Part shown: positions 122-42,975 of the stretch, in pieces | Layout: every line of letters begins with the position of its first letter | Position numbering within the stretch: position 1 is the stretch's first letter | IMG/VR virus record: IMGVR_UViG_3300020049_009769 | Coordinates: 1 to 43,063 of that record | Strand: one strand, 5' to 3' | From: a virus | Length of the DNA: 43,063 nucleotides | Program-made: the position numbers and the translations under genes | The notes under the pieces: generated by a model | The model's database searches: none | What the model was told of the DNA's origin: nothing | What the model saw: only the letters and a program-made list of their open reading frames with translations

Positions 122-173
122 TATTATGAAACATGTTGATAAAAATTTGCCAATTTCGGAGTTTGTTAGATGA
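30..173 (+). CDS. Small single-TM protein, 47 aa (holin/antiholin-class candidate); same gene as 42972-43063
   Basis: Hand translated: MSSDCCDGFLTVLFLILIFVSVRHTCHYVHDIMKHVDKNLPISEFVR. The ATG overlaps the upstream stop in GGAGTTTGTTAAATGA. Below the ORF-track size cutoff. Confidence 0.6.
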   Translation: MSSDCCDGFLTVLFLILIFVSVRHTCHYVHDIMKHVDKNLPISEFVR

Positions 174-325: not shown

Positions 326-580
326 ATGAATTATTTATTATTAAACTTGCTTGAGAAAATAGCCATTTCGATTGTTGCTATTGTTGGCTCTGTATTTGCA
401 TTGTCTGCACTTGCGTTTTGTTTTAGTGAGATTTACGAAGATAGAAAAGAAAAGAAAAAAGACAACAAAGAAAAAGCGCTTTTCTTTTTTAAAGAAGACA
501 ATGGCAATGTTTCAGGCAAATCTAATGAATCTAATGAGTCCATTTTAGAAACTGAGGTGCTTAATATATCAATTTCTTAA
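326..580 (+). CDS. Single-TM membrane protein, 84 aa; paralog of 34798-35016
   Basis: ORF track; hydrophobic segment IAISIVAIVGSVFALSALAFCF followed by a K/E-rich tail; shares MNY...KI.I.I..I.G....LSA.A..F.EIYE...FFF.ED with the 34798 ORF. Confidence 0.7.
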   Translation: MNYLLLNLLEKIAISIVAIVGSVFALSALAFCFSEIYEDRKEKKKDNKEKALFFFKEDNGNVSGKSNESNESILETEVLNISIS

Positions 581-1537: not shown

Positions 1538-1669
1538 TTATTTTTTTTTAGATTTTCCAGCGACTGACATAGCAATTGCTATTGCCTGTTTTTCAGGCTT
1601 TCCCGCATGCCTTTCAGTGGCTATATTTTCTGAAATAACTTTTTTAGATTTACCTTTTTTAAGGGGCAT
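1538..1669 (-). CDS. Small basic protein ([10 protein letters not shown]...[17 protein letters not shown])
   Basis: Internal Met of track ORF 1538-1747, chosen because the longer form overlaps the 1659-1874 membrane ORF by ~90 nt. KxAIAIAxSxAGK-type small basic proteins recur in phages. Confidence 0.45.
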
Positions 1670-1874
1670 TTTTCTCATTCTCTTGTTTATTTTTAAAACC
1701 AAAGTAAGCATTAAAGACGTCTTTAACAATGCCAAATAATCCCCCAAGGATAATAGCTAGCACACGTGCCGTATCGTCAGGAACGTCTACAAAACATAAT
1801 ACCAAAATTATAACAAATAAACCAACAAACGAAAGTATCGCTAAAATATGTGGCATCGCAATTTTTAATTTCAT
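1659..1874 (-). CDS. Two-TM small membrane protein, 71 aa
   Basis: ORF track; hydrophobic stretches [19 protein letters not shown] and [13 protein letters not shown]; follows the tail fibre cluster. Confidence 0.65.
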
Positions 1875-19162: not shown

Positions 19163-19912
19163 TTAACCTCTAAAGCGTGGGTTGTTCATAAAACTCGCAA
19201 CCGACGGTTTACCATCACTCAAAGCCGATGTTCGTGACGGTTTTACTTGGCTCAAAGGTTCAGGTGCGTTTTTCTGTTGCGCAGCTGCCTTATTAGCTTT
19301 AATCGATAAGGCAATTTGATGTAATTGTTTTTGAGCTAACTTTTCCGAGCCTGCATTTACTAACGTCAATATAGACGAGTATTTAGCCGGATTAGTGCCT
19401 AGCTCTTTCATCACATCAGTCATTTCATCCGTTTCGTTAAGCATTTTTACTAACAACGGATTAGACCCAATATTCATATCTTCATAAAGCTGGATAAACT
19501 CAGGGTCTTGTGACATGGCATCATTTATCTTGTCGCTAAACTCTTCAACAATTCGCTGGCCCTCTTGCTCTGCTTTAAGGGTTTCGCGCTGTTTAACAAG
19601 CTCATTCGCGCTTGCCGCTACTAACGATTGCAAATATTGCCTTTGTTCAGGCTCTAAACCTGACAACACATCTTCGCTTTGCATTTGCTGTTGTTGCTGC
19701 GCATATTTCGCTTCAACTTCAGCCCTTGCTCTCGCTGCGGCCTTTGCTGCAATTGAATTAACTTGGGACTTCGGAATCATCTTTTCCGGTTTGGGTGCAG
19801 GCGCACTTGCTTCCGGTTCGGGTGATTCGCTGAGTGCCTCGGTTGTTTCAACGGGCGCTGGCGCTGACTCGATAACTGGCTCTGTTGTTACCTCTGTATT
19901 TATCTCATCCAC
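19163..19912 (-). CDS. Scaffolding protein, 249 aa
   Basis: Acidic A/E/Q-rich predicted helical protein between portal and coat; AGAGG RBS. Confidence 0.65.
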   Translation of the reverse strand: MDEINTEVTTEPVIESAPAPVETTEALSESPEPEASAPAPKPEKMIPKSQVNSIAAKAAARARAEVEAKYAQQQQQMQSEDVLSGLEPEQRQYLQSLVAASANELVKQRETLKAEQEGQRIVEEFSDKINDAMSQDPEFIQLYEDMNIGSNPLLVKMLNETDEMTDVMKELGTNPAKYSSILTLVNAGSEKLAQKQLHQIALSIKANKAAAQQKNAPEPLSQVKPSRTSALSDGKPSVASFMNNPRFRG

Positions 19913-20072
19913 TTAAAACCTCTTTAGCTGTTAACCTGCAACGGTAAAACTGAGTTACTTACCCAGGGAAAGGGCTTTTAACGCGCCAACGTATAACTAT
20001 TTAAAGCATAGTTGCTTAATTGATTATAGTTTAATACTTTAATGCATTTAATGCAATTAAGTCATGCATAGG

Positions 20073-20135
20073 AAATGTCGATAACATGTGCATGTTTCAA
20101 AAACATGCACAAAAAAATGAATTTTTTCGACATTT
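20073..20135. promoter_or_regulatory. Nested inverted repeats in the portal-operon/scaffold intergenic region
   Basis: Outer AAATGTCGA (20073-20081) / TCGACATTT (20127-20135); inner perfect 11-bp stem TGTGCATGTTT-caa-AAACATGCACA (20087-20111). Confidence 0.6.
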
Positions 20136-20136
20136 A

Positions 20137-20163
20137 CCTAGCCGATGCTAAGCATCGGCTAGG
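20137..20163 (-). terminator. Perfect 12-bp hairpin 12 nt downstream of the 321-aa gene (terminator or RNA-stability element)
   Basis: CCTAGCCGATGC-taa-GCATCGGCTAGG. The U-tract is poor on the minus strand (UAAAUGUCG) and better on the plus strand (UGUUUU). Confidence 0.45.
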
Positions 20164-20174
20164 TGTTTTAAAGC

Positions 20175-21140
20175 TTAAGCTACGCGTTGATAGATAGCGC
20201 TTATCACTAATGAGCCTGCGGTATAGTCTGCTGTACCGCCTGAATAAATAGCTCTCAAATTAGCGCCAGCAGCTGTGGAAGTATTCGCAGCCGCTGAGAC
20301 GGGGTAAGGTAACCCCGTTGTACCCCAATTTGAGTTTGTTAAACTTTGCGCTGTTGCTGCTGGGATGACGCTATAAACGGTAGTTCCGTCAGTGATGCTA
20401 ATATTTCTATCACCGCCGCCGCCCGAGAAGTTTGTGCCACCGCTATTTAAGTTCATCATTCGTAATTTATATCTTTTTGAACCGCTAGAAACGATAAGCG
20501 GAACATTACCACCGGCGGCTAATGCTGCTTGACCGACGGTGACGTCAAAAGAAATTAAGTTAGCGCAAGGGTCTGGGTTTTGTGTCGTGGTTTGGATATA
20601 GCCAAAAGCATTACCTGGGTCTGCGATAGTTATATTTGTTGACTGGCCAAACGAAGCATTTTGTAAAAATGAACCATAAGGTCCTCCCTGGGTTTGGGCT
20701 CTAAAAACAAAATAACTTGCTTGTGAACCTGGGTATGATTTAAAGTTGCCACCCAAGGAAGTGCTGCCCGCTTCGATATCACCTAAATGAATCGCCGTTG
20801 TATTAGACGTAACACCTAGCGTACCTTGCGTGTCTAAAAATACCGCTAAATTATTAGCAATTGTAGGTAATACAATATCACCGCTATCAACAAACAAAGT
20901 AACAATACCGCCAGAAAAGCTAACGCCTAGCTGGATATTAGTACCAGTACCGGTTGCAGCATCATAACTATAAGTGCAATCGATAATATCAGTTTGATAT
21001 AAAGTTTGTGGCTGTATTGCTTGTAAGGTTAAATAACCCGCAGATGTAATCGCTGCTAAGTTATCAGTACTGCGTAATTTACCGCGTCTTGGTGTGTTTC
21101 CAACTTGGTTGGGTGTCCCCATATCTAAAACATAACTCAT
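20175..21140 (-). CDS. Virion-module protein of unknown role, 321 aa, inserted between portal and scaffold
   Basis: ORF track; its start overlaps the portal stop by 4 nt; S/T/G/N-rich. Confidence 0.65.
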   Translation of the reverse strand: MSYVLDMGTPNQVGNTPRRGKLRSTDNLAAITSAGYLTLQAIQPQTLYQTDIIDCTYSYDAATGTGTNIQLGVSFSGGIVTLFVDSGDIVLPTIANNLAVFLDTQGTLGVTSNTTAIHLGDIEAGSTSLGGNFKSYPGSQASYFVFRAQTQGGPYGSFLQNASFGQSTNITIADPGNAFGYIQTTTQNPDPCANLISFDVTVGQAALAAGGNVPLIVSSGSKRYKLRMMNLNSGGTNFSGGGGDRNISITDGTTVYSVIPAATAQSLTNSNWGTTGLPYPVSAAANTSTAAGANLRAIYSGGTADYTAGSLVISAIYQRVA

Positions 21141-25198: not shown

Positions 25199-25267
25199 GC
25201 TGAAATCAACTAATCGGTAAGACCTTTTGGTGACGAAAGGGATGCAGGTTCGACTCCTGCTTTCAGC
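25199..25267 (+). tRNA. tRNA-like gene, non-canonical (weak D stem, 8-nt anticodon loop)
   Basis: Acceptor GCTGAAA/TTTCAGC, T arm GCAGG-TTCGACT-CCTGC, and U8, A14, G18G19, A21 in register. However the D stem has only 2-3 pairs, and the CCTTT/AAAGG stem encloses TGGTGACG. Confidence 0.45.
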
Positions 25268-25306
25268 TTCTAAAACATGCCCCGATCGCGTCATCGCCAA
25301 TATACA

Positions 25307-29129: not shown

Positions 29130-29165
29130 TTAATTTACCTATAAATAATCAAATTTAAGTAATTT

Positions 29166-29193
29166 ATTATACAAAACTATTTAAATAAGTCAA
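29166..29193 (-). promoter_or_regulatory. Sigma70-type promoter TTGACT-N16-TATAAT for the long minus-strand block
   Basis: Reverse complement reads ttgact tatttaaatagttttg tataat, ~35 nt upstream of the rusA start. Confidence 0.7.
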
Positions 29194-29338
29194 CAATTAA
29201 TCATCAACACATAATTTATTCTTTATTAAATAATTAAAATATTCCTTTAAATAATAGTTGTCACCCCTGTTTTAAAAATAGGTTGACGGTATAAATACCC
29301 ATTAAAAATATAACTTATAAGTAATTAAATTCATTTAA

Positions 29339-29379
29339 ACTTTGTAACTATTTATAAATGACTTTGTAACTATTTATAA
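29339..29379. repeat. Two 19-bp direct repeats ACTTTGTAACTATTTATAA, 22-bp period (operator/UP-like)
   Basis: Identical copies at 29339-29357 and 29361-29379; the second ends 17 bp upstream of the early -35. Confidence 0.85.
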
Positions 29380-29396
29380 TTATTTTCAAATAACAG

Positions 29397-29425
29397 TTGA
29401 CATACTGATTTTAGTTAGCTATACT
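29397..29425 (+). promoter_or_regulatory. Early promoter TTGACA-N17-TATACT
   Basis: Read directly; ~58 nt upstream of the first early ATG (29484). Confidence 0.75.
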
Positions 29426-29483
29426 ATCAACATATCGCAGCAATACGATATACGAAATAATCAAACCTAAGGAGATTTTTAAA

Positions 29484-30668: not shown

Positions 30669-31040
30669 ATGTACGCACACGAAATACTAAAAAATTTATT
30701 TGATGGATATAAATTAAGACACAAAAGCTGGGCAAAAAATGAATTTATTTGTTATGAAAATAATAATATTTATTTATGCAAAAGCTTTTTAAGTAAAGCA
30801 GATAGAGAGTATTTTCAAATATGGGAATTTTTATCAGGCTACGGCTCTAATATAAGCATAAATTACGCAATGGAAATTGTAGAGCCCACAGTACAAAATG
30901 AGGCGATCGGTTTAATTGCCGAATGGAAAGAATATTGCGAATCTTATTTAGGGTTTTCGAACCCTCAGGTTTTGCAGGGTGTATTACAATCTATTTACGA
31001 GTCTTTTGAAAATTTTTTAAAAAAAGCAAGTGAGGAATGA
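30669..31040 (+). CDS. DUF2829 (Tad2-like) paralog 1, 123 aa
   Basis: HEILKNLFDGYKLRHKSWAKNEFICY...FQIWEFL. Confidence 0.6.
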   Translation: MYAHEILKNLFDGYKLRHKSWAKNEFICYENNNIYLCKSFLSKADREYFQIWEFLSGYGSNISINYAMEIVEPTVQNEAIGLIAEWKEYCESYLGFSNPQVLQGVLQSIYESFENFLKKASEE

Positions 31041-31043
31041 AAA

Positions 31044-31505
31044 ATGAAACTTAAGTTAATTACAAATTTAATATCAGATGCAACACGTTTTCGTCGAGCG
31101 TCCTGGGAGCCTGGGTTATATATAAACATAAAAAATATAAACGACCCTACATTTTTAGATGCGTCAGAAGTAGATGCTGATGACTGGGAATTTTTCATCG
31201 ATGATAATTTATTTTCTAAAAAAATCGAATTAAAACGGGATGTACCGCGTTATCATATTAACCGTAAGCCTGCATTTTTCAATGATTGCGATTTTAACGT
31301 GTTTAACATGCCCTTTGAGCGCTCGACAACGCCCTCACCGGTCGATAGCAGCGACGAAGAGGAAGAATGGTGTATGATTGCTAAACCAGTAAAGCTCATA
31401 AACGTAAAAGAAGACCGAAAACAACGCGCTTCGTTTTTTGCTCAGAACACAAATAGAGATGAAGTTTTTGACGCAGAATGGCCAATTAAGAGGTTAAAAA
31501 AATGA
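31044..31505 (+). CDS. DUF2829 (Tad2-like) paralog 2, 153 aa
   Basis: LITNLISDATRFRRASWEPGLYINI...DADDWEFF. Confidence 0.65.
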   Translation: MKLKLITNLISDATRFRRASWEPGLYINIKNINDPTFLDASEVDADDWEFFIDDNLFSKKIELKRDVPRYHINRKPAFFNDCDFNVFNMPFERSTTPSPVDSSDEEEEWCMIAKPVKLINVKEDRKQRASFFAQNTNRDEVFDAEWPIKRLKK

Positions 31506-31843
31506 GTGAATATTTATATTTGAATGATATTAATACTGAAGAAATGGCAATTGATTATTTGCTATGTGAAATTCATACCAACCCAAAATGTAAATTAGTT
31601 ATTGAAGATAATGACATTTGCTTACATACTCAAATTCAAAAATTTATATACAAAATTTTAAATGAAATAAAAACTTCAATAGGTGAAGTTATTGTTGATG
31701 AGGATAAATGGTGGGAAGAAAACGAAGATAGAAATTATATTGAAAATAAAAAAACTATTTTTTATATCTTTTACGGTTTGCTAAGTTCCAAAAACATTAG
31801 AAAAATATTAAGATTATGTCATGAGGAGGGGTTAATTAAATGA
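31502..31843 (+). CDS. Hypothetical protein, 113 aa, interrupting the DUF2829 array
   Basis: ORF track; ATGA-type overlaps on both sides; no DUF2829 motif. Confidence 0.65.
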   Translation: MSEYLYLNDINTEEMAIDYLLCEIHTNPKCKLVIEDNDICLHTQIQKFIYKILNEIKTSIGEVIVDEDKWWEENEDRNYIENKKTIFYIFYGLLSSKNIRKILRLCHEEGLIK

Positions 31844-32172
31844 AACTCAAAGACTTAAAAACTTTTGTTAACCCTTGCGGCAAAATACGCCGTGCATGTT
31901 GGCAACAACATTTATACTTAAATGCATTAGAAATGAATAATGAAAGGTATCTATCTTATCAGGATAGGCATGCAGAAGATTGGGAAATATTTGTCGAACA
32001 AGATTTACGCGAAGGCATCCCGATTCCAAGACGTAGAATGATAGACCAGCATATTCCTGAAAGGTTTTTTTCTAATCATGAATTTTTGAGAAGAACCAAT
32101 AGACCAAATTATGAGGCGTTAAGAATTTTAGATGAAATCGATTTTTTAATTAAGAACCCGAAAGGAAAATGA
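31840..32172 (+). CDS. DUF2829 (Tad2-like) paralog 3, 110 aa
   Basis: LKTFVNPCGKIRRACWQQHLYLNA...HAEDWEIF. Confidence 0.65.
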   Translation: MKLKDLKTFVNPCGKIRRACWQQHLYLNALEMNNERYLSYQDRHAEDWEIFVEQDLREGIPIPRRRMIDQHIPERFFSNHEFLRRTNRPNYEALRILDEIDFLIKNPKGK

Positions 32173-32173
32173 A

Positions 32174-32539
32174 ATGAAACCAATTGAAATATTGCAAGCA
32201 TTAAAAGATGGTAAGAAAGTAAGAGGCAAAAATTGGGAAAAAGGTTATTTTATTTACCTTAAAGATGGATTAGTGGTTGAAAAAGACAATGACCGTTTTG
32301 ATATTTATCGATACATACATAATGAAATTAATTACAATGACTGTAGCCTAGAGCCAAATTTAAACTTTGAAATCTATGAAGATTGCGAAGATAAAACGAT
32401 TTTATTAATCAAAAATTTAAAATATATTTCTGATTCCGCCATTAATGAAAATAAAAATTTTTTCCATTATCAAATGATGGAAAATGTATTGCATGAAATT
32501 TCAAAAATATGTGAACAATTTTTAAAGGAAAAACAATAA
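32174..32539 (+). CDS. DUF2829 (Tad2-like) paralog 4, 121 aa
   Basis: MKPIEILQALKDGKKVRGKNWEKGYFIYLKDG is the closest match to the family consensus (..EAlkaLkeGkkvrRkgW...). Confidence 0.75.
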   Translation: MKPIEILQALKDGKKVRGKNWEKGYFIYLKDGLVVEKDNDRFDIYRYIHNEINYNDCSLEPNLNFEIYEDCEDKTILLIKNLKYISDSAINENKNFFHYQMMENVLHEISKICEQFLKEKQ

Positions 32540-33024
32540 TGAAACTAAGTGAAGCAATTCAAGCATTAAACGATGGCAAAATGCTCAAAAATATTTACTG
32601 GGCAAAAGAGGATTTTATTTATTTAAAAGATGGGGTTGTTTATGACCATAAAAACCATCAATTTGATTTTTGGAATTTCATAGGCCATAATTATGGCGCT
32701 TCTTGCGCTCTTGATTTATATATTAATTTCACACTTTACGAGCCACCCTACACAATCGACGATGCTTTTAATGACTTGAAAGAAATTTATGCTAAATATA
32801 AATATCAATATGACTATACCAGCGCTAAAATATATATAATAAAAATACATCATATTCATAATCAAGAGCTTTATATAGAGCCTGATAATTGGCCTATGGG
32901 AACCTATGGCACGTGGTCTCTTTTTCCTTTGTTTACCACATATGCAGATTGCGAAAAAGCCATAGAAGAAATCGGAAAAGACAAAATACTAAAAATCGCT
33001 AAAACTTTAAAGGGGATCAAATAA
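32539..33024 (+). CDS. DUF2829 (Tad2-like) paralog 5, 161 aa with a C-terminal extension
   Basis: MKLSEAIQALNDGKMLKNIYWAKEDFIYLKDGVVY...FDFWNFI. Confidence 0.7.
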   Translation: MKLSEAIQALNDGKMLKNIYWAKEDFIYLKDGVVYDHKNHQFDFWNFIGHNYGASCALDLYINFTLYEPPYTIDDAFNDLKEIYAKYKYQYDYTSAKIYIIKIHHIHNQELYIEPDNWPMGTYGTWSLFPLFTTYADCEKAIEEIGKDKILKIAKTLKGIK

Positions 33025-33299
33025 TGCCATGCCAATCCTGGACTGACCCACTAGAAGACGGGGGAGCTAAAATAAGGGAGGTTACTCGAATAAATCATTC
33101 TTTGGTCGACAAAATAGAAGATCTAAAAAGATCCTTAGATAACCACGCAAGAATGCTCTGTTATTTATTAACCTCACTCGAAAAACAAAATATCAAACAA
33201 ACGGCTTTTGATGGTTTGAATCTTAAAGATAAATTAGAGGTAGAGCTTTGGTGGTTAAATCACCAAAATTACGATAGTCAACGAAATGGGAAAAAATAA
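33024..33299 (+). CDS. Hypothetical protein, 91 aa; paralog of 33299-33568
   Basis: Shares DLKR...LC.L.T..E.Q...WW..HQ..D.QR with the next ORF. Confidence 0.7.
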   Translation: MPCQSWTDPLEDGGAKIREVTRINHSLVDKIEDLKRSLDNHARMLCYLLTSLEKQNIKQTAFDGLNLKDKLEVELWWLNHQNYDSQRNGKK

Positions 33300-33568
33300 T
33301 GGGATGCTCTTCATCGTCCGGATATGAATCAATGCCATCCGTTGTTACAAATTGCAAGTGCAGCGAAATGTATAATGACCTTAAAAGATTATACAAACAT
33401 GAAGCTGATATTATTAATCGTGTATTATGCGCTTTAGTAACGACTATAGAACAACAGGGGCATTTGAAAGAAGCTCTGGCAAATATGCCTGTTCGCGAAA
33501 GCTCAGAATTAACTGCTTGGTGGTATACTCATCAAGAATTTGATAAGCAAAGAAAGGAGATAAAATAA
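33299..33568 (+). CDS. Hypothetical protein, 89 aa; paralog of 33024-33299
   Basis: See the previous feature; N-terminus MGCSSSSG. Confidence 0.7.
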   Translation: MGCSSSSGYESMPSVVTNCKCSEMYNDLKRLYKHEADIINRVLCALVTTIEQQGHLKEALANMPVRESSELTAWWYTHQEFDKQRKEIK

Positions 33569-36326: not shown

Positions 36327-36719
36327 ATGCGCATGAAAAAAGAAGACTTAAAGGATGAATTAAAATTTCATACCGAAAGAATGAAAGAAAGTTATGCTAA
36401 AGATGATGAATGCAAAAATATTTTGAAAGAAAATATAGAACAATATTCTAAGCTTATAACTAGTTGCGAGAAACTTGCAGAATTTATCAAAATGCAACTT
36501 TCGGTTAATTTTAGGGATGAGGGTTATGAAAAAGCTATTGATATTTGCCAAAAAATAGAAAACGCTTACAAACGAGGAATCATTAACATGGCAGAAAAAT
36601 ATAAAATCGACCCAGGAACTGTGGGTAATGTTATGTTTATTTGCGGATTAGAAGTAAATCAACAATCATTAGAGCAATCATTAAAAATTTTTAAAGAAAT
36701 CATTGAGAATGAAAACTAA
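36327..36719 (+). CDS. Hypothetical helical protein, 130 aa
   Basis: ORF track; immediately upstream of the HTH gene. Confidence 0.65.
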   Translation: MRMKKEDLKDELKFHTERMKESYAKDDECKNILKENIEQYSKLITSCEKLAEFIKMQLSVNFRDEGYEKAIDICQKIENAYKRGIINMAEKYKIDPGTVGNVMFICGLEVNQQSLEQSLKIFKEIIENEN

Positions 36720-36915
36720 TTATACAAAATACATGGGCGATATTGATAAAATGTCGCTCAAACAAATGCGAGCAGCGTTGGGCTTGACTCAAATGCAACT
36801 TGCCTCTAAACTTAGCCTTCCTCTTAAATCAATCCAGGTCTGGGAAAACAACCCCAAAAAAGCTAATCCGATTGTAAACGAATACTTACAATTCATGCTT
36901 TCACAACAAAAATGA
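36709..36915 (+). CDS. XRE/Cro-type helix-turn-helix regulator
   Basis: SLKQMRAALGLTQMQLASKLSLPLKSIQVWENNPKK matches the XRE HTH pattern. Start uncertain (TTG 36703, ATG 36709/36733/36751). Confidence 0.7.
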   Translation: MKTNYTKYMGDIDKMSLKQMRAALGLTQMQLASKLSLPLKSIQVWENNPKKANPIVNEYLQFMLSQQK

Positions 36916-36985: not shown

Positions 36986-37252
36986 TTAATGCGAAAGCTG
37001 ACTCTCTGCTTGTTTTTTTGCAAGCTCTCGTCGGCTGTTAAGAATTGTCCACATACCCTCTTGGCTTATCTGACCTTTCAAAAAATCGCCTAATGCTCGT
37101 ATGCAATGTTTCCCGATTTCAAACTCAACAACTTTGGCTTGCTCAGCTTCTGACAATGTCGTCGAACCGGGGAATTTTTCTTTCAAACTTTCCTCGAATT
37201 TCCGCTGTTCTTGGTCAAATAAAAAATCATCTTTTTTCCATGGATTGCTCAT
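36986..37252 (-). CDS. Hypothetical protein, 88 aa, translationally coupled to the replication initiator
   Basis: ORF track; 4-nt overlap with the rep stop; occupies the position of a helicase-loader/accessory gene but is much smaller. Confidence 0.6.
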   Translation of the reverse strand: MSNPWKKDDFLFDQEQRKFEESLKEKFPGSTTLSEAEQAKVVEFEIGKHCIRALGDFLKGQISQEGMWTILNSRRELAKKQAESQLSH

Positions 37253-38373
37253 TTTAACACCTCTCTTATCTTTTTGATTGTTTCTTGTGCAACTTCAGAT
37301 TGTCCCGAGTTTTTAACGCAGTGCACAAATACGTTTAAAAACGGATTAGAAGGATCTGTCTCAATCCTCCTATCTACCCGGTAGGTATGTCTACCCCCTT
37401 CCTCGATATCCTCTCCTTGCCTGGTATTCTTTTGCTTCCGTGGCTCTTCGAGGCTGATTCCTGACTTGTTATGCAGCTTATCCATGAAATGTTGTTCGCA
37501 AAGGCATTTATTGTATAAATTATAAACTTTTCCAAGTTCTTTACAGTCTGGATGAGTGCATCGCCCATCGAATTTTGGTTTTTCTTCTGTCACGTCGGGT
37601 TCCCAATCGCCTTTATTTGCACATTTTATAATCACGTTCAATTTTTTAGCAAAATCGCCGTGGCAAAACTTGAATTGCTCGGGGTCTTGAATGGATTTTG
37701 CTATGCCATGAAGTATAGCAGTTTTCGAATGAGTTTGCAGGACAGTGAGGGATTTTGTTTTTAAAACTATCAGGTCGGCTTGTAGCTTAGTGAGTCCGTA
37801 TTGTTCCCATGGGTGGTCATTGCTCGGTGTTAATTCAGGGCACAGGGGTTGGGGCTCAGTCCCCCCGTCTTCGTCTTGCAAAGCGAAAGCGGCAGCAGCA
37901 GGGGCGTCCGCGAAAGCGGGCGACCTCTCTTCTTCTCGGATCTTCTCTATCTGTATATATTGTAAAAGGGTACTCCCCTCCGAGGGAGTGTTTCTACTCC
38001 CCTCCGAGGGAGTGTTTCTACTCCCCGGGAGGGGAGTACCCTTGCGAGGGAGTACCCTTGTTCCTGTGGATAACTTTAACCATGATTTTGTATCATAATT
38101 TATGCTATATAAAAATTGATTATTATGTGGTATTCGAATTATCATGTTTCTTTGAATTAGTTTTTTTATGATATCGGGGGAGTGTTTAGTTTTTATTTCA
38201 GTAAGTCTTTCGAAGGTCTTGAGGGATATAATTGCTTCGTCTTTAAAACATCCGATCGTTTCTGCGACGATGGTTTGGAATATTTTATTTTCCTCACCTG
38301 TTAAATCCCATCTACAAATTGTTCTTAGAATATCCATTGAATATTTAGCGAAAGGAGTAGCTAACTTTGACAT
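37249..38373 (-). CDS. Replication initiator, lambda O-like N-terminal domain, 374 aa
   Basis: LTGEENKIFQTIVAETIGCFKDEAIISLKTFERLTEIKTKHSPDIIKKLIQRNMII parallels lambda O LTKRQFKVLLAILRKTYGWNKPMDRITDSQLSEITKLPVKRCNEAKLELVRMNII. Iterons lie inside the gene. Confidence 0.75.
   Translation of the reverse strand: MSKLATPFAKYSMDILRTICRWDLTGEENKIFQTIVAETIGCFKDEAIISLKTFERLTEIKTKHSPDIIKKLIQRNMIIRIPHNNQFLYSINYDTKSWLKLSTGTRVLPRKGTPLPGSRNTPSEGSRNTPSEGSTLLQYIQIEKIREEERSPAFADAPAAAAFALQDEDGGTEPQPLCPELTPSNDHPWEQYGLTKLQADLIVLKTKSLTVLQTHSKTAILHGIAKSIQDPEQFKFCHGDFAKKLNVIIKCANKGDWEPDVTEEKPKFDGRCTHPDCKELGKVYNLYNKCLCEQHFMDKLHNKSGISLEEPRKQKNTRQGEDIEEGGRHTYRVDRRIETDPSNPFLNVFVHCVKNSGQSEVAQETIKKIREVLK
37966..38060. 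repeat. Origin iterons inside the rep gene
   Basis: Identical 24-mers TACTCCCCTCCGAGGGAGTGTTTC at 37971-37994 and 37995-38018, then TACTCCCCGGGAGGGGAGTACCCT and TGCGAGGGAGTACCCTTG. Each is built on an ACTCCC/GGGAGT dyad. Confidence 0.8.
38061..38170. other. AT-rich tract adjacent to the iterons (candidate DNA-unwinding element)
   Basis: Read directly: ttcctgtggataactttaaccatgattttgtatcataatttatgctatataaaaattgattattatg... A further GGGAGTGTTT lies at 38178-38187. Confidence 0.6.
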
Positions 38374-38414: not shown

Positions 38415-38442
38415 TTGCAATTTGATCGTACAGCTTTATAAT
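38415..38442 (+). promoter_or_regulatory. Promoter TTGCAA-N16-TATAAT reading away from the rep start
   Basis: Read directly; followed within ~40 nt by a plus-strand intrinsic terminator. Confidence 0.55.
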
Positions 38443-38446
38443 TGCC

Positions 38447-38508
38447 GCTTGCTCAACTTAGGACAAAGTTTGAGTTCTTTGGAGAGGTGGTTTGAACACC
38501 TCTCTTTT
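38447..38508 (+). ncRNA. Candidate ~60-nt small RNA antisense to the rep upstream leader
   Basis: Promoter, then hairpin CTCAA(c)TT..AAAGTTTGAG, then terminator GAGAGGTG-gtttgaa-CACCTCTC-TTTT. Contains no ORF. Confidence 0.45.
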
Positions 38509-38570
38509 CCGTTAGCTAAGATATTATAAAATAACACAAAACAAAAGCCATTGAACAAAATCTTTATTGC

Positions 38571-38596
38571 ATAAAAAAGGATGCTTTCGCACCCTT
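38571..38596 (-). terminator. Intrinsic terminator after the Zn-ribbon gene
   Basis: The minus-strand RNA reads AAGGGUGC-GAAA-GCAUCCUU followed by UUUUAU. The G.U pair exists only on the minus transcript. Confidence 0.7.
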
Positions 38597-38600
38597 ACAG

Positions 38601-38813
38601 TTATTCGTCTTTTTTTGCTTTGGCTTCTTTAGCTTTTAAATAATTCCCCCGTCTTTTTTTTTGGTAAACCGCATTATTTTCTAAACTGCACCCGTGACAA
38701 CTTCCGCTACTTGTGTATCTTTCTTCAATATGTCCACGTGAACATGGTTTACCCGTATAGTATTTGGTAAGCCCATTTTTTATAGCCTCAACTCTCGATA
38801 TTAATTTCATCAA
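38601..38813 (-). CDS. Small Zn-ribbon protein, 70 aa, basic C-terminus
   Basis: YYTGKPCSRGHIEERYTSSGSCHGC (C-x3-H...C-x2-C); monocistronic, lying between its own promoter and terminator. Confidence 0.65.
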   Translation of the reverse strand: MMKLISRVEAIKNGLTKYYTGKPCSRGHIEERYTSSGSCHGCSLENNAVYQKKRRGNYLKAKEAKAKKDE

Positions 38814-38842
38814 TGCCTCTTAAATATTTTTTTGTAAGTTAG

Positions 38843-38871
38843 TTGACAAAAGTATTGTAGTCAATTATACT
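38843..38871 (+). promoter_or_regulatory. Promoter TTGACA-N17-TATACT for the replication/recombination/lysis operon
   Basis: Read directly; same architecture as the early promoter at 29397. Confidence 0.75.
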
Positions 38872-38883
38872 CTCAAATGTCAA
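38854..38883 (-). promoter_or_regulatory. Divergent overlapping promoter TTGACA-N18-TACAAT for the Zn-ribbon gene
   Basis: Reverse complement reads ttgaca tttgagagtataattgac tacaat; its -10 lies inside the spacer of the plus-strand promoter. Confidence 0.6.
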
Positions 38884-39120
38884 GGCGAATTGTATAAGGT
38901 GCCCGCAGGCATTTAACCATTATCGAATAGATAGTTTATACGATTCGCCTTGCAATTTCCTTAAGAAATAGGCGCTTTTGATGGCACACGTTAAAAGCGC
39001 CGACTTACAGGTTGAAAAAGTTTAACGAATTTGCTTGCCCAGCGAGTGGAATTAAGAGGTTGTGTAGTAGGTTGAATTAGCATTTCCTACGTACATGTAA
39101 AAGCTCCTCTTAATTTTTTT
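38878..39120 (+). ncRNA. ~240-nt structured untranslated leader ending in an intrinsic terminator
   Basis: 16-bp stem 38881-38896/38937-38952; 9-11-bp stem 38971-39001; stem AATTAAGAGG/CCTCTTAATT (39050-39059/39106-39115) followed by TTTTT. The RBS TAGGAG and ATG 39144 lie just beyond. Confidence 0.55.
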
Positions 39121-39143
39121 AGTTAACATTTAGGAGTAGTTTT

Positions 39144-39530
39144 ATGGATACTTATATCAATCACGTTGAAAAACTGATTAAAGACCAATGTTTATTTGTT
39201 CCCGACGAATCACTTGACGAGGTTTATGTACCTTTAGGTGATGTTTCTCAATTTATTTTGAACGAAACAGCCAATATTAATTTAGCCCCATTTTATGACG
39301 ATTCCTTTTCAAGCAACGCTATTTTAGACATCCTCATTGCTTTTGTGCGTTACGTTAAAGATGTCAAAATTGAAAGTAAAGAGGCCGCGGAATCTGCGGT
39401 TAAGCATTTAGAAGATGCCTTTAATAGCATTGGTAGTTATGTTGCTAACACAATTATTGATATACTACCTTCTGTTATCCAGGATGTGAAAGACGCTAGA
39501 CGTGATCGGAGGGATTTTCAAAATGTTTAA
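39144..39530 (+). CDS. Hypothetical protein, 128 aa
   Basis: ORF track; TAGGAG RBS. Confidence 0.7.
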   Translation: MDTYINHVEKLIKDQCLFVPDESLDEVYVPLGDVSQFILNETANINLAPFYDDSFSSNAILDILIAFVRYVKDVKIESKEAAESAVKHLEDAFNSIGSYVANTIIDILPSVIQDVKDARRDRRDFQNV

Positions 39531-39657
39531 ACGAAAAATGGCCACACCGATTCGCCGGCAAAAAAATATAGAAAGAATTTTCAACAAAACAAATTTTTTT
39601 GCTGGTGCTTTTATTTTTGGTTTTTGGTTGGGTTTATGGGTAGGTAAAGTATTATGA
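39523..39657 (+). CDS. Small membrane protein, 44 aa
   Basis: Hand translated: MFKRKMATPIRRQKNIERIFNKTNFFAGAFIFGFWLGLWVGKVL. ATGA overlap with the ATPase gene. Confidence 0.5.
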   Translation: MFKRKMATPIRRQKNIERIFNKTNFFAGAFIFGFWLGLWVGKVL

Positions 39658-40304
39658 GTAGAGCATGTTTAATTATTGGAGAATCGGGGTGCGGAAAAAG
39701 CACCTCGATTGAACATTTAAACCCAGAAGAAACATTTTTAATTAACGTTGAAAATAAACCCTTACCCTTTCGTGGGCATAAGTCAAAATACAAAATGGTA
39801 GGAACAGGCGAGGGGGGTAATTGTTTAGCTACCGATAATTATGAATTGATTTTAAAATATTTAAGAGCTATTAACAAAGAGCGTTTATTTATTAAAAATA
39901 TTATCATTGATGACTTTCAATATATTATGTGTAACGAATTTATGGGTAGAGCGACTGAAAAAGGCTACGGTAAATTTGCAGAAATTGGGCAGCATGCATG
40001 GTTTATTTTAAATGCACTGTCTAAATTTCGTGATGATTTAAATATCTTTGTTTTAAGCCATTCCATGCGCGACGAAGACGGTGTTTACCGTTGCAAAACC
40101 ATTGGTAAAATGTTGGATAATACGATTACGGTTGAGGGTCTATTTACGGTTGTATTGCATGCATTGCTAATTGATGGTCACTATAAGTTTCAAACGCAAG
40201 TATCCGTTCATCACTTAGCTAAATCCCCTCGCGGCATGTTTAATGACATGTATATCGATAATAATTTACAATTAGTAATTGATGCGATTAAGGGGTATGA
40301 ATAA
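39654..40304 (+). CDS. Sak4-like (AAA_24-type) recombination ATPase
   Basis: Walker A GESGCGKST and Walker B NIIIDDF; ~216 aa; neighbours are the Gp157-like and DUF669-like genes. Confidence 0.7.
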   Translation: MSRACLIIGESGCGKSTSIEHLNPEETFLINVENKPLPFRGHKSKYKMVGTGEGGNCLATDNYELILKYLRAINKERLFIKNIIIDDFQYIMCNEFMGRATEKGYGKFAEIGQHAWFILNALSKFRDDLNIFVLSHSMRDEDGVYRCKTIGKMLDNTITVEGLFTVVLHALLIDGHYKFQTQVSVHHLAKSPRGMFNDMYIDNNLQLVIDAIKGYE

Positions 40305-40792
40305 TGAGCTTGTATGAAATAACAAGGCAGTACGAAGAGATATTGAATGACTTTGATGAGGAAACCGGCGAGATTAACTTTCAAGCGCTGGAAAATATTA
40401 ACGATGCTTTTGAAGATAAGTGCTTATGTATTGCTGCTTTTATTCGTAATTTGCAAGCGGATGAATTGGCTATAAAAGAAGCTATTGCTGCAATGAAAGA
40501 AAGAAAAGAAAAAAAAGAAAAATTGATTGTAAAGCTACAAGATTACGTGTTAAATAACATGGAGCGATTGGGTATTCAAAAAATTGATTCCTCTCCTTAT
40601 TTTGAAATCAATTTAAGAAAATGCGCTCCGTCAGCGGACGTGTATGACGAAACACAACTTTCGCCATTATATCGGTATGAACGTAGTGAATATTTTACAG
40701 ATAAGCGCGCTATATTAAAGGCGCTTAAATCCGGGCTAGAAATTCCCGGGGCTAGATTAGTTACAGACAAGAAAAGTTTACAAATTAAATAG
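40304..40792 (+). CDS. Siphovirus Gp157-like protein
   Basis: MSLYEITRQYEEIL...coiled coil...KSGLEIPGARLVTDKKSLQIK fits the Gp157 family pattern end to end. Confidence 0.7.
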   Translation: MSLYEITRQYEEILNDFDEETGEINFQALENINDAFEDKCLCIAAFIRNLQADELAIKEAIAAMKERKEKKEKLIVKLQDYVLNNMERLGIQKIDSSPYFEINLRKCAPSADVYDETQLSPLYRYERSEYFTDKRAILKALKSGLEIPGARLVTDKKSLQIK

Positions 40793-40800
40793 GGGTTTTT

Positions 40801-41325
40801 ATGATAGTTAATTTTGAGCCGTTCGATTGCGCTGAAATTGGAAGCAAAATGCTTGCTGCGGGTTTGGGAAGTTTTAAAATCATTTCTTTTGAAAAAAAGA
40901 TAAGCCGTAAAGCAGAGCAAATGATTCAGCTTAACTTTATGATTAAAGATTGCAACGGTAAAAAAGGCGAATGGGAAATGTTTATCGTTCCCGGTAATCA
41001 AATGTGGAAGTTTTCAGAAATATTTAAATCTTTAGGGATGGAAAATGTTGCTAAAACAGGCGCTGTTGATTTTAATTCACTTATTAATAAAACCGGTCGT
41101 TGTGAGATCTTTATGAAAGAATATCAAAATCAATACGGGGCAATCAAAGAATGGCATGATGTGCAATTAATACCTCATGACGAAGAAAGAAAAGAGCCTA
41201 TATTAAAAACTAAAAAACTTGATTTAACGCCTGGACAACATGTTAAGGCCGCTGTTGGCTCATCGCTTGAAAAAGTTGGCGCTATGCCGCCGGTTAATGA
41301 CTTCGATGATGATATACCATTTTAA
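40801..41325 (+). CDS. DUF669-like ssDNA-binding protein with an SSB C-terminal tip
   Basis: Ends in NDFDDDIPF, identical to the E. coli SSB acidic tip DFDDDIPF; sits in the classical position after Sak4. Confidence 0.75.
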   Translation: MIVNFEPFDCAEIGSKMLAAGLGSFKIISFEKKISRKAEQMIQLNFMIKDCNGKKGEWEMFIVPGNQMWKFSEIFKSLGMENVAKTGAVDFNSLINKTGRCEIFMKEYQNQYGAIKEWHDVQLIPHDEERKEPILKTKKLDLTPGQHVKAAVGSSLEKVGAMPPVNDFDDDIPF

Positions 41326-41638: not shown

Positions 41639-41948
41639 TTATGATGAGGTTAGAAAATCTGTTGATATATTACACGCGCTTTGCGGCTCTATTGTAAAAA
41701 GTTATTTATCAAGACTCGGGATTACCGTCGATGAATTTGACGATAAATTTCAGGAAATTAAAGATAAAAGTGGCGAGCTCATTAAATCTTTAGGATTGGA
41801 ACCATATTTTTACGGTTTTATTGTGGTTTCACACATGATGTCGGAATTACAGCATGGATTTGATAGCATTGGCGTAGCTACCTTAACAGAATTATTAGAT
41901 GATGAATATTTACAAAAGGTAAACCCTGATGAGCAATTACAGCATTAA
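41619..41948 (+). CDS. Hypothetical protein (~109 aa)
   Basis: Track ORF 41601-41948, trimmed to the ATG with the best AAGGA spacing. Confidence 0.6.
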   Translation: MQPTIIDYDEVRKSVDILHALCGSIVKSYLSRLGITVDEFDDKFQEIKDKSGELIKSLGLEPYFYGFIVVSHMMSELQHGFDSIGVATLTELLDDEYLQKVNPDEQLQH

Positions 41949-42156
41949 TAATCGCATAAGATTAAATGAAATACAAAAAGAGCTTAAGCAAATTATGGGT
42001 GAATTATATAATTCTGAGGGTGTTGACAAGCGAGGGGTTAATGTTGCCAAAACGAGTTTTGATACAGGGTTTTTATGGGCGTTTAATATCATAAATTCTT
42101 TACGAAAATTCAAGACTAAACAATTTGGCTTTAATGATAAAATTGATTTTGAATAA
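41929..42156 (+). CDS. Hypothetical protein, 75 aa
   Basis: ORF track. Confidence 0.6.
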   Translation: MSNYSINNRIRLNEIQKELKQIMGELYNSEGVDKRGVNVAKTSFDTGFLWAFNIINSLRKFKTKQFGFNDKIDFE

Positions 42157-42172: not shown

Positions 42173-42703
42173 ATGAGCATCAATATTAAGCATTTTTATG
42201 ATTTTGTGATTACACCTGCATGTTTAAGATTAAGCAGCGCGAGACCTGCAATAGATAGCCCGGTAGCCAGAAAGCTTGTTTTATTTACTTTCTGCCAAGA
42301 GTCTTTAGCGGGTATGTATTTGCGACAAGTTGTTCCCGGGGGTTCTTATGGGGTGGGGCGCGGTGTATTTATGTGCGAACCAAACACGCATGAATGGATT
42401 TGGAAAGAATTGTCTAGACAAGAAAACAACACGCTTAGGGAGTCGGTTCTAGGTGAGCTTCCCCGTAATGCGGTTTATCCTTATAACGACCAGCTAATGA
42501 GTAATTTAATTTATGCAGCTATGATTTGTCGCTTACGTTATTGGTTTGTTAGGGCTGCATTACCTGAAAATAATTTAGAAGCTATAGCAAATTATTGGGG
42601 TAAATACTATCAGACTGACGACCAGGACTTAAGTAAGCTTGGCGCAAAAGAAATTCAATTTATAGAAAACGTTAAACGATTAGCGCCGGAGTTTGTTAAA
42701 TGA
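42173..42703 (+). CDS. Putative lytic-transglycosylase-like endolysin, 176 aa
   Basis: FCQESLAG...GVGRGVFMCEPNTHEW resembles the SLT E-S...GxxGLMQxxPxT arrangement; followed by three small TM proteins. Confidence 0.45.
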   Translation: MSINIKHFYDFVITPACLRLSSARPAIDSPVARKLVLFTFCQESLAGMYLRQVVPGGSYGVGRGVFMCEPNTHEWIWKELSRQENNTLRESVLGELPRNAVYPYNDQLMSNLIYAAMICRLRYWFVRAALPENNLEAIANYWGKYYQTDDQDLSKLGAKEIQFIENVKRLAPEFVK

Positions 42704-42975
42704 TTTATGATAGCGCGCCATCAGATTTTTTAAATGAAAAAATTGAGATTGTAATTACAAGATTTGTGCCTGATTTAGAAAACCCAGGCTCAGATAGTGG
42801 TTTATATGGCATAAATGTTCGCACTCAATTTGAAGAGGGTGTTTGGTATTCCTACGGCATTCCTGACCCTGTTACAGTAGAGTCCGTTATCGAAAAGCTT
42901 ATGGGTGTTTACAATACGGCTAAAAAGCAAAATGAAATGAGAAAAGATACATTGATTACGGAGTTTGTTAAATGA
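42700..42975 (+). CDS. Hypothetical protein, 91 aa
   Basis: ORF track; no TM segment; ends in EFVK like the endolysin candidate. Confidence 0.65.
   Translation: MIYDSAPSDFLNEKIEIVITRFVPDLENPGSDSGLYGINVRTQFEEGVWYSYGIPDPVTVESVIEKLMGVYNTAKKQNEMRKDTLITEFVK

Follow-up and report, generated by a model that had tools for sequence, protein, structure and literature searches.

A strongly structured leader RNA with a probable leaky terminator between interlocked divergent promoters and the early recombination operon of an uncultivated phage

What is made, and what is controlled, in the long gap between the two divergent early operons of an uncultivated phage? The DNA analysed, called here the window, is a genome stretch of 43,063 nt with 37% GC (IMG/VR record IMGVR_UViG_3300020049_009769). 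The host is probably a proteobacterium; an assignment from Sak4 matches was rejected, the best genome matches being phage contigs mis-binned into unrelated MAGs. A tRNA-like element at 25199-25268 is a possible att site. The original prediction described two interlocked promoters, followed on the plus strand by a terminated, structured leader without coding capacity. The questions are whether such an RNA is plausible, whether it could end before the first gene and what would then allow expression of the operon behind it.

Overlapping divergent promoters are known from phage P22 (Pant/Pmnt). In the present genome, a rightward early sigma-70 promoter (TTGACA-N17-TATACT, plus strand, 38843..38871, predicted start at about 38878) is interlocked with the leftward sigma-70 promoter of the Zn-ribbon/replication operon (TTGACA-N18-TACAAT, minus strand, 38854..38883, predicted start at about 38847), and each matches 11 of the 12 consensus positions. 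Only four sites with at least 11/12 matches occur in the whole 43-kb window, while dinucleotide shuffles contain 1.8 on average. All four sit in two divergent intergenic gaps, each facing its flanking genes, which places them far beyond chance. The best genome match of the rightward promoter is the other plus-strand early promoter, at 29397-29425. The -10 hexamers of the interlocked pair (38866-71 on the plus strand and 38859-54 on the minus strand) do not overlap and leave 6 bp between them, and the two predicted starts are 31 bp apart. The leftward promoter has its -35 hexamer over the first six nucleotides (+1 to +6) of the rightward transcript; that of the rightward promoter, in turn, overlies the predicted start site of the leftward one. 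This overlap geometry predicts that the promoters compete, with one RNA polymerase at a time on the site, as had been proposed.

In bacterial bidirectional promoters, the starts are 7-25 bp apart (mode 18) and symmetric -10 elements overlap (Warman et al., 10.1101/2020.01.31.928960). The present pair resembles them in that DNA is shared and one orientation of RNA polymerase would exclude the other (10.1101/2020.01.31.928960; PMC12825309), but its starts are about 31 bp apart, its -10 elements are separate and each -35 lies over the start of the partner. Moreover, bidirectional promoters combine a strong and a weak member, whereas both are near-consensus here. The promoter region also bears the predicted inverted repeat AGTTGAC-N12-GTCAATT (38842..38867), a candidate operator that spans the -35 to -10 region of the rightward promoter and the -10 and start of the leftward one. 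The repeat is present, but taken alone its core pattern falls short of significance: the window has two matches (0.38 expected), a count reached by 8 of 100 shuffles. No equivalent dyad was found at the 29.3-kb promoter pair. If the repeat is an operator, the Zn-ribbon protein and a 70-aa HTH protein (36703-36915) would be candidate ligands. The only other candidate promoter for the rightward operon lies downstream (39123-39152, 9/12) and would start inside the ORF. No other promoter therefore serves this operon, and any terminator in the leader must be read through.

The leftward operon begins with a gene (38601..38810, minus strand) for a basic 69-aa Zn-ribbon protein (PHROG 1081), consisting of a CHCC knuckle and a 30-residue helix (AlphaFold2 model, pLDDT 96). 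No PDB match was obtained by sequence or fold, and no close homologues were found. The module itself, of about 45 aa, is very widespread (8151 cluster representatives) and occurs mostly in several copies within larger proteins; in viral proteins, it is fused to endonuclease VII, GIY-YIG and HNH nucleases. The protein is a generic DNA-binding-type module. In epsilon15 and Tyrion, the Zn-ribbon is encoded directly upstream of replication genes without such a leader, which, together with its spread as a nuclease-fused module, speaks against the antitermination role that had been suggested for it. A canonical intrinsic terminator (38577..38596, minus strand; 8-bp stem, GAAA loop, U6; -11.4 kcal/mol, z -2.9) separates this gene from that of an O-like replication initiator (37249..38373, minus strand; PF04492, TIGR01610). 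The latter contains iterons (37966-38060) and palindromes and thus a probable origin, and an origin inside the leader was discarded on this account.

The first rightward gene (39144..39530, plus strand) encodes an acidic orphan protein of 128 aa (pI 4.4) without family match. It has no homologue among 5.8 billion proteins, no similarity to its positional equivalents in related phages and no arginine-rich N-terminus. It is followed by genes for Sak4-like ATPase, Gp157/Gam-like and SSB-like proteins (39654..41325, plus strand; PHROG 2872 at 8e-69, PF05565 at 4e-37 and PHROG 378/2698). The operon behind the leader is thus an early recombination operon and not a late one. The lysis genes said to end it were not confirmed: the product of 42173-42703 matches only PHROG 3108, a family without assigned function, and has no Pfam, NCBIfam or PDB sequence match. 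Since the three small proteins encoded after it have N-terminal hydrophobic segments, a lysis cassette at the far end of the operon is possible. The minus strand carries the genes for terminase, portal and head, behind a promoter at 29193.

Between promoter and first gene, the predicted plus-strand transcript (about 38878-39120, 243-245 nt) is non-coding, and no plus-strand ORF of at least 30 aa exists between 38878 and 39143, in line with the original prediction. Two shorter candidates for a leader peptide were not credible: a TTG-initiated 22-aa ORF has no usable RBS (its SD-like string lacks a spacer), and a 14-aa ATG ORF is buried within the second strong hairpin. For the leader as a whole, the folding energy is -86.8 kcal/mol (z about -5.9), a value that none of 200 shuffles attained, while the minus strand reaches only -62.8 kcal/mol. 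The plus-strand fold has nine G.U pairs and the minus-strand fold one, and each of the three strong hairpins (HP1, HP2 and HP5) is 4-7.5 kcal/mol more stable on the plus strand. By comparison, both DNA palindromes of the genome (the ori block and the 20-kb inverted repeat) are strand-symmetric. The leader RNA looks real, and it is strongly and strand-specifically structured. In the computed ensemble, unpaired probabilities are near 0 for the arms of HP1, HP2 and HP5, the single-stranded segments measure 4-12 nt each and no alternative fold competes with any of the three hairpins. An origin of the leader as an insertion between direct repeats (38816-48 and 39106-28) was also considered and dropped (p about 0.016; many genome windows score equally).

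All three stems that had been described were found, and they are stronger than stated. HP1 (38878..38954, plus strand, 77 nt; -33.8 kcal/mol, z -7.0) is a Y-shaped 5'-terminal hairpin that begins 0-2 nt from the predicted +1. Its outer stem of 19 bp, rather than 16, encloses two 6-bp hairpins (loops CGCA and GAAUA) in a three-way junction. With four G.U pairs and -33.8 kcal/mol on the plus strand versus -26.6 on the minus strand, it is the third strongest folding locus of the genome and the sole strand-asymmetric one. HP2 (38971..39001, plus strand; -20.6 kcal/mol, z -6.4) has 13 bp, instead of 9-11, with a GC-rich base and a 5-nt loop. Its ensemble frequency is 0.92, its minus-strand counterpart folds at -13.1 kcal/mol and no U tract directly follows it. 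The spacer behind it (39011..39047, plus strand) contains two weak hairpins no better than those of shuffles (z -0.9).

HP5 and its T7 run (39048..39120, plus strand) form the end of the leader. The hairpin proper (39048-39117, 70 nt; -20.3 kcal/mol, z -2.9) is compound, with a perfect 10-bp AU-rich base stem (39050-59/39106-15) and an inner helix. The T7 run (39114-39120) abuts the stem and leaves five U beyond the 10 bp, so that the TTTTT described after the last stem is confirmed. The stability of its closing hairpin ranks 4 among the 145 T-runs of at least six in the genome, about 2% of which carry a closing hairpin as stable in this AT-rich background, and HP5 is the only intergenic, sense-oriented member of the top-ranked group. 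Canonical intrinsic terminators combine a GC-rich stem (5-14 bp) with a loop of 3-8 nt and a U tract directly after the stem. Compared with this, HP5, at 70 nt, is long and compound, its base is AU-rich and 5-7 U follow, and a scan for canonical terminators did not call it. The predicted terminator thus stands as a hairpin and U run right before the first RBS, though of atypical form, and HP5 is a probable leaky intrinsic terminator. The distance to the RBS is 12 nt and not 10 (AGGAG 39133-39137, within the RBS and ATG at 39133..39146, plus strand). No further terminators were found downstream in the rightward operon; together with the lack of a fold competing with HP5, this favours plain attenuation over a switch or processive antitermination.

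Sequestration of the SD sequence or an RNA thermometer could be ruled out: the SD pairing is diffuse, and the translation initiation region, with an accessibility of 0.52, is ordinary within the genome's range of 0.29-0.79. With no competing fold and no match to a riboswitch model, the suggested ligand- or temperature-sensing attenuator finds no support either. The Rfam models, which cover riboswitches, C4 antisense RNA, thermometers, ribozymes, 6S, Y RNA and others, gave nothing at gathering thresholds, and hits in 38500-39300 at E values up to 10 were noise far below threshold.

Relatives of the leader were sought at several levels. With blastn, the leader and 1 kb around it gave nothing or only 30-nt noise in 50,697 phage genomes. 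The pattern of the HP1 base stem had 23 matches in IMG/VR, all chance or coding, one of them a fold-back assembly artefact, and that of HP2 had none. A combined HP1 and HP2 descriptor had 34 matches in 241 million metagenome records, none with extended similarity, and an HP1 20-mer was absent from 185,579 genomes. A covariance model built from HP1 and HP2 (R2, single sequence) detected nothing in 91 related loci and only itself in the window, which excludes a second copy there. Relatives of the Sak4 protein are at most 62% identical, and their operons have short heads (median gap 102 nt in 70 loci; below 250 nt in 66 of the 70); the single long divergent gap among them is unstructured. The leader hence appears to be a lineage-specific gain. 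As these searches brought up no homologue and Sak4 operons mostly have no long leader, no helix has covariation support.

The architecture was likened to lambda pR'-6S RNA-tR', in which Q antitermination is needed. It is indeed like that of lambda and Stx phages (6S RNA, StxS; PMC7547250) in its strong promoter, short non-coding transcript and terminator before an operon, a likeness at the sequence level only (11/12 promoter, ORF-free transcript of about 243 nt, hairpin and U run). In that system, a stable and functional RNA can arise as a by-product, and promoter-proximal terminated phage transcripts can persist as functional small RNAs, as shown for StxS (PMC7547250). The parallel ends with the architecture: the genes downstream are early recombination genes and the structural genes are on the other strand, the terminator is atypical, and no sequence relationship links 6S or StxS to the present RNA, which has about 243 nt and three strong hairpins. 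As had been noted, no Q homologue is recognisable; neither a Q nor an N family was found when about 60 proteins, those of all but a few small ORFs, were scanned against PHROGs, Pfam and NCBIfam. The only candidate for a -10-like, sigma-dependent pause element in the initial transcribed region is TATAAG (38893-38898, +16 to +21), with A at position 2 but no T at position 6.

A put-type RNA was the other proposed parallel. Like HK022 putL/putR (PMC9378689), the leader would be a structured RNA that starts 1-3 nt from an early pL-like start, leads into recombination genes and has no recognisable protein antiterminator at its side. The put RNA binds the zinc-binding domain of beta' and suppresses pausing and termination in cis. 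It is about 70 nt long, with two adjacent irregular stem-loops (a V shape) from about +3, whereas HP1 (77 nt) encloses a junction and HP2 is a separate perfect hairpin 16 nt further. The put sites occur as two related copies, one per early operon, and the leader as one; here, unlike with put, there are no downstream terminators beyond the leader's own. The put consensus elements tested were GAACGGCGCG, GTCGG and GGCGGGTTCAGGATGAACGGCAATG, with two stems. A put covariance model (R1, eight put sequences), run over the whole window with filters off, had no match in 38878-39143, its best match elsewhere in the window having an E value of 0.25. Given the negative model, the enclosed three-way junction of HP1 and the single copy, a put-type RNA is not supported. 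A looser analogy is offered by Tn916, where the insulating terminator T1 guards replication-type genes of a mobile element and the cis RNA canT, made solely from the element's own promoter, may override it (PMC11658703); the terminator is alike, such an override is hypothetical here, element type and host phylum differ, and sequence relatedness is not to be expected.

In the lambda pL leader, nutL and an RNase III-sensitive hairpin lie ahead of N, and no terminator precedes N. Like it, the present leader is structured, with a length in the range of 220-260 nt that covers both, and connects an early promoter of leftward type with a recombination operon whose first gene is small. It differs in having no boxA/boxB, a terminator-like hairpin before the first gene and, in place of the arginine-rich N, an acidic product. 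No nut site was matched in Rfam, and the only string resembling boxA is hidden within the stem of HP2. The immunity RNAs c4 of P1/P7 and CI of P4 also derive from leaders (Rfam C4). HP1 shares with them a size of about 77 nt, a basal stem with two arms and a position in the leader of the operon that it precedes, but no Rfam C4 match was obtained at E values up to 10, and neither leader nor RBS contains complementary target boxes. A 16-nt match between 38868-83 and the RBS was rejected as self-complementarity of this type because it lies mostly upstream of +1 and so is not in the RNA.

Taken together, these features suggest, with a probability of roughly 0.4, that the leader is specific to this lineage, is stabilised by its 5' hairpin and ends in a leaky terminator. 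The region would be a fused control point of two early operons, where the interlocked promoters admit one RNA polymerase. Leftward transcription would pass the Zn-ribbon gene and the canonical terminator before reaching the O-like initiator, and rightward transcription would yield a static, highly structured non-coding leader of about 243 nt. HP1, forming from the first nucleotides, would most likely protect the RNA from decay that depends on the 5' end, because its position at +1 is the geometry that blocks entry of RNase E/RppH. According to Emory, Bouvet and Belasco, ompA-type hairpins at the 5' end reportedly act in this way. HP2 would be a second stable module. HP5 and its U run, 12 nt ahead of the RBS, would terminate transcription intrinsically and without a factor, but leakily. 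Most transcripts would thus stop there and give a discrete, stable, U-tailed RNA of about 243 nt, while a fixed fraction would read on and allow expression of the orphan gene and the recombination genes (Sak4, Gp157 and SSB). A caveat for the static-leader model is that the static stem of 19 bp may rather serve as a cleavage site for RNase III.

The latter possibility leads to the view of the leader as a plain 5'-UTR, structured for mRNA stability or processing (for instance by an RNase III cut of the 19-bp stem), with an incidental U run and no significant termination. The failure of the scan to call HP5, an AT-rich genome rich in T-runs, an operon without other promoter and the precedent of the structured lambda pL leader of about 220 nt with its RNase III site all fit this view. 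It is nevertheless judged unlikely, because HP5 is the one intergenic and sense-oriented hairpin near the top of the ranking, its U run directly abuts the stem and its plus-strand bias, with three G.U pairs, indicates that selection has acted on the RNA. Alternatively, HP5 could be efficient and its read-through regulated, in a Q- or N-like manner, by a phage antiterminator protein of an unrecognised family. That the family scan found no Q, N or other antiterminator weighs against such a gate, as do an acidic first product without arginine-rich N-terminus, the missing boxA/boxB-like nut site and Rfam match, a -10-like element without the critical final T and the absence of later terminators that would call for processivity. 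The order of strong promoter, short structured RNA and terminator would suit it, and both early operons carry an early terminator before their main genes, as with lambda tL1/tR1. Since most early genes are orphans, one of their many products could be the factor; the Zn-ribbon protein, the other candidate, is a generic nuclease-associated module. This regulated form is considered somewhat less likely still than the plain 5'-UTR.

HP1 and/or HP2 might also bind the polymerase and make it resistant to HP5, as functional analogues of put or canT, in which case HP5 would insulate only against transcripts started elsewhere. Two very stable modules right after +1 and ahead of a terminator do occupy a putL-like position (PMC9378689), the combination of insulator and cis antiterminator is documented for Tn916 (PMC11658703) and no protein factor is recognisable. 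But the put model is negative, the helices of HP1 and HP2 are perfectly regular, without the bulges and loops that mediate put-RNAP contacts, and a junction replaces the two adjacent irregular stems. In addition, about 45 nt of unstructured spacer separate HP2 from HP5, and the leftward operon has a terminator without any copy of the element. Antitermination by the leader itself is accordingly improbable. A little less so is a trans-acting regulatory or decoy RNA, StxS-like (PMC7547250) or anti-defence, whose promoter the operon merely shares: a consensus promoter, stable structure and a terminator hairpin with U tail (a typical Hfq-type 3' module) speak for it, as does the lineage-specific gain against the short gaps of related heads. 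No target, seed or conserved single-stranded region is definable, homologues are absent, the single-stranded segments measure only 4-12 nt, and neither internal nor RBS complementarity is significant. That HP1 and/or HP2 represent a new, put-unrelated class of cis RNA modifying host RNA polymerase, so that only transcripts begun at this promoter would get past HP5 and a phage would have a protein-free pair of insulator and antiterminator, or that a new early RNA with a regulatory or anti-defence role is seen in the 243-nt transcript, is a long shot of much the same order. That the structure belongs to an element of the DNA itself (origin, cruciform or palindromes bound by protein) or arose by chance is very improbable. 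The leader is a neighbour of the replication-initiator operon, and at the DNA level HP1 and HP2 also form inverted repeats, but the strand asymmetry sets them apart from the symmetric ori block and 20-kb inverted repeat, the iterons in the O-like gene account for the origin, and the shuffles never folded as well.

If the leaky-terminator reading is true, the ratio of a stable early non-coding RNA to the recombination operon would be set in a compact and protein-free way, and the coupled promoter pair would force a choice between the replication and recombination operons. The coordination of the two early operons would then differ from that in the lambda immunity region. The leader adds an orphan candidate to the small set of promoter-proximal phage RNAs (6S/StxS, put, c4 and CI); its value is limited by the absence of relatives, and the promoter-leader unit of about 300 bp makes a compact test object for termination, antitermination and promoter competition. 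The leftward operon repeats the same logic with its early canonical terminator.

An exact 121-nt direct repeat occupies both ends of the contig (1-121 and 42943-43063) and shows that the assembly, of ~42,942 bp (~42.9 kb), is circular or terminally redundant. The genome (37% GC) belongs to an uncultivated tailed phage whose head genes (terminase, portal, Hc3 and major head protein) form a P22/epsilon15-like module, and no integrase was recognisable in it. It contains two large intergenic gaps, 29130-29483 and 38814-39143, each located between divergent genes. Sigma-70 sites scoring at least 11/12 occur only four times genome-wide, versus 1.8 on average in dinucleotide shuffles; every one of them falls within the two gaps and is directed at the flanking genes. 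The plus-strand promoters at 29397 and 38843, both AGTTGACA-N17-TATACT, match one another better than any other part of the genome.

In the gap at 38814-39143, the predicted rightward promoter has its -35 at 38843-38848, its -10 at 38866-38871 and its start at ~38878, while the predicted leftward promoter has its -35 at 38883-38878, its -10 at 38859-38854 and its start at ~38847. The interlocking of two divergent promoters, as originally predicted, is borne out by these hexamer positions and by the rarity of such sites in the genome; this observation is real and statistically solid. Each -35 covers the start site of the partner promoter and the -10 hexamers are separated by 6 bp; judging from standard RNA polymerase footprints, it is therefore implausible on steric grounds that two polymerases sit there at once. 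The inverted repeat AGTTGAC-N12-GTCAATT within the pair does exist and is not significant on its own. The interlock is unusual, and here it is combined with a structured leader. The gap at 29130-29483 has a second divergent near-consensus pair, ~200 bp apart and not interlocked: a minus-strand promoter TTGACT-N16-TATAAT (29193..29166) points to RusA and the late genes, and the plus-strand promoter at 29397-29425 is followed by a short leader. Two copies of the direct repeat ACTTTGTAACTATTTATAA are also found there.

As predicted, the rightward transcript is free of ORFs, with none of at least 30 aa on the plus strand between ~38878 and the ATG at 39144. This 266-nt leader folds at -86.8 kcal/mol, versus -58.2 ± 4.9 kcal/mol for shuffled sequences (z -5.85; 0/200 as good), and its reverse complement reaches only -62.8 kcal/mol. 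The three stems of the original prediction are all present. HP1 (38878-38954), a 19-bp stem around two 6-bp hairpins, folds at -33.8 kcal/mol on the plus strand and -26.6 on the minus strand (plus-strand z -7.0); HP2 (38971-39001), with 13 bp and a 5-nt loop, at -20.6 and -13.1 (z -6.4); and HP5 (39048-39117), a perfect 10-bp base stem with an inner helix, at -20.3 and -16.4 (z -2.9). Together they contain nine G.U pairs on the plus strand and one on the minus strand. HP1 and HP2 are real and statistically solid; the stretch from HP2 to HP5 holds two small hairpins at chance level. The leader is thus an RNA-level structure of the plus strand.

The first gene behind the leftward promoter encodes a basic 69-aa Zn-ribbon protein (38601-38810, minus strand) and is followed by a textbook minus-strand terminator (8 bp, GAAA loop, U6). 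Next come an O-like replication initiator (37249-38373, minus strand) and an 88-aa gene. Four or more palindromic iterons lie within the O-like gene (37966-38060); the iteron ACTCCCCTCCGAGGGAGT forms two exact 24-bp tandem units with further copies in 37921-38100 and encodes the GSRNTPSE repeat of the protein. The region 37921-38100 is the strongest folding locus of the genome, equal on both strands, and is probably a lambda-style replication origin within the initiator gene. Moreover, a promoter-like TTGCAA-N16-TATAAT (10/12) occurs in 38415-38512 on the plus strand, with a canonical plus-strand terminator ~40 nt further on (38481-38505, 9 bp, UUUUCC). This region could produce an RNA of ~65 nt antisense to the O-like gene leader, placed much as lambda oop RNA is.

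On the right, the first gene 3' of the leader encodes an acidic 128-aa orphan (pI 4.4) with no homologue among 5.8 billion proteins, followed by a Sak4-like ATPase, a Gp157/Gam-like protein, an SSB-like protein and several unknowns. Further on are a 176-aa protein (from 42173, plus strand) matching PHROG 3108, of unknown function, a 91-aa protein and three small proteins of 47, 51 and 84 aa whose N-termini contain hydrophobic segments (42173-42975 and 30-580, plus strand); this set could be a lysis cassette. Given the terminal repeat, the operon runs across the circular junction to an HD phosphohydrolase gene at 650-1228. No canonical terminator lies inside the operon, and no other usable promoter lies ahead of it. 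From its content it is therefore an early recombination operon, a counterpart of the lambda pL operon rather than a late one; the proposed guarding of an operon that ends in lysis genes is not supported in its specifics. A holin-like 71-aa protein with two TM segments is encoded at the end of the late operon (1659-1874, minus strand). A 75-aa protein (41929-42156, plus strand) gave a Pfam match, probably noise, to the Acb2/Tad1 hairpin domain found in sponges against CBASS and Thoeris; at E 0.07 the match is very weak and falls well short of the threshold.

Relatives of the leader were sought at several levels. Blastn against phage genomes gave no match, and the Rfam scan that had been suggested originally was negative too with E values up to 10 admitted. 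Searches by pattern through IMG/VR, JGI metagenomes and 185,579 genomes gave no true match, and a structure-aware model found none over 91 related loci. One HP1-like pattern match (IMGVR_UViG_3300025943_000038, 7500-7651) was rejected as an assembly artefact, since the contig end folds back perfectly on the coding sequence before it. Among phages and prophages that carry the Sak4 module, identity does not exceed 62%; the divergent layout persists in them, but the left-hand gene is a small HTH gene and the intergenic regions are short. Over 70 such loci the gap at the operon head has a median of 102 nt and reaches at least 250 nt in only four, and the sole comparable gap is unstructured. The leader thus appears, from these comparisons, to be a lineage-specific orphan.

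The reading we favour, with a probability of roughly 0.4, is a static structured leader with an HP1-protected 5' end and a leaky terminator in HP5. Transcription from the rightward promoter would yield a highly structured, static RNA in which HP1, folding from the first transcribed nucleotides, would shield the 5' end. HP5 and its U run would end part of transcription with no need for a factor, the product being a stable RNA of ~243 nt with a U tail, and the remaining polymerases would continue into the genes for recombination. The same logic would apply on the left, where a canonical terminator follows the first gene. Because the promoters exclude each other, the replication operon and the recombination operon would be balanced against one another by the relative promoter strengths and by any protein that occupies the dyad. 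The element is of a known kind, the structured or terminated leader RNAs found close to the promoters of phage operons, and fits no known family; it is clearly defined and easily tested.

A UTR that serves purely in stabilising or processing the transcript, with no significant termination at HP5, is an unlikely competitor. The canonical terminator scan makes no call on HP5, because its loop is too large. A T7 run (39114-39120) comes directly after HP5, with the RBS 12 nt downstream, and HP5 ranks fourth by closing-hairpin stability among 145 runs of at least six T on both strands, being the only intergenic, sense-oriented member of the top-ranked group; statistical support for a terminator is moderate. 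Somewhat less probable is a protein antiterminator of an unrecognised kind. The architecture does match the lambda pR'-6S-tR' arrangement; none of ~60 proteins scanned is Q- or N-like, the downstream operon is early, and the sole -10-like element of the initial transcribed region has no T at its essential last position. The Zn-ribbon protein had been named as a candidate factor, and nothing ties it to the leader RNA. It has a CHCC knuckle and a basic 30-residue helix (AlphaFold2 pLDDT 96), with no PDB relative and no Pfam model. The module of ~45 aa defines a very large, uncharacterised family; it is found in 8151 cluster representatives, usually as two to five tandem copies in larger proteins. 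Some viral proteins join it to endonuclease VII, GIY-YIG or HNH nucleases, and these fusions point to a generic, modular DNA-binding domain. The Zn-ribbon protein could bind at the promoter dyad. In epsilon15 and Tyrion a Zn-ribbon gene also lies just upstream of replication genes, but with no structured leader close by.

That the short RNA is itself the chief product, acting in trans, seems improbable. A cis-acting RNA like put, with a new fold, is slightly more doubtful still. HP1 begins at +1 to +3, as does putL of HK022 (PMC9378689), but its regular helices form an enclosed three-way junction, and there is a single copy. A covariance model built from aligned putL and putR of HK022 and six put sequences of other phages found no match in the leader when the window was scanned with filters off. 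The specifics of a Q- or put-dependent guard are therefore not supported. The suggested ligand or temperature sensor likewise finds no backing, as the ensemble holds no competing fold and the RBS is as accessible as those of other genes. There is very little chance that the region is a DNA element or a chance fold: in a survey with 120-nt sliding windows, HP1 was among the three strongest folding loci of the genome and the sole strand-asymmetric one, the other two (the O-like gene block and an inverted repeat at ~20.1 kb) being symmetric DNA palindromes.

The latter repeat (20021-20260, about -55 kcal/mol on both strands) lies around the gap between the head-region genes 19163-19912 and 20175-21140 (minus strand). 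Elsewhere, a plus-strand Rfam tRNA match at 25199-25268 (31 bits; gathering score 29) has a good acceptor stem and T arm (GGUUCGACUCC), a degenerate D arm and a short anticodon loop, and ARAGORN made no tRNA call on it. It is antisense to the late operon, overlaps a doubtful 75-aa ORF, and may be what is left of a tRNA or a sequence related to an att site. The early operon that includes 30669-33568 (plus strand) has runs of paralogues in that stretch: a PHROG 6670-like N-terminus is common to three neighbouring genes, and a PHROG 11759-like C-terminus to two neighbouring ones. Nearly all of the ~25 genes in this operon are orphans.
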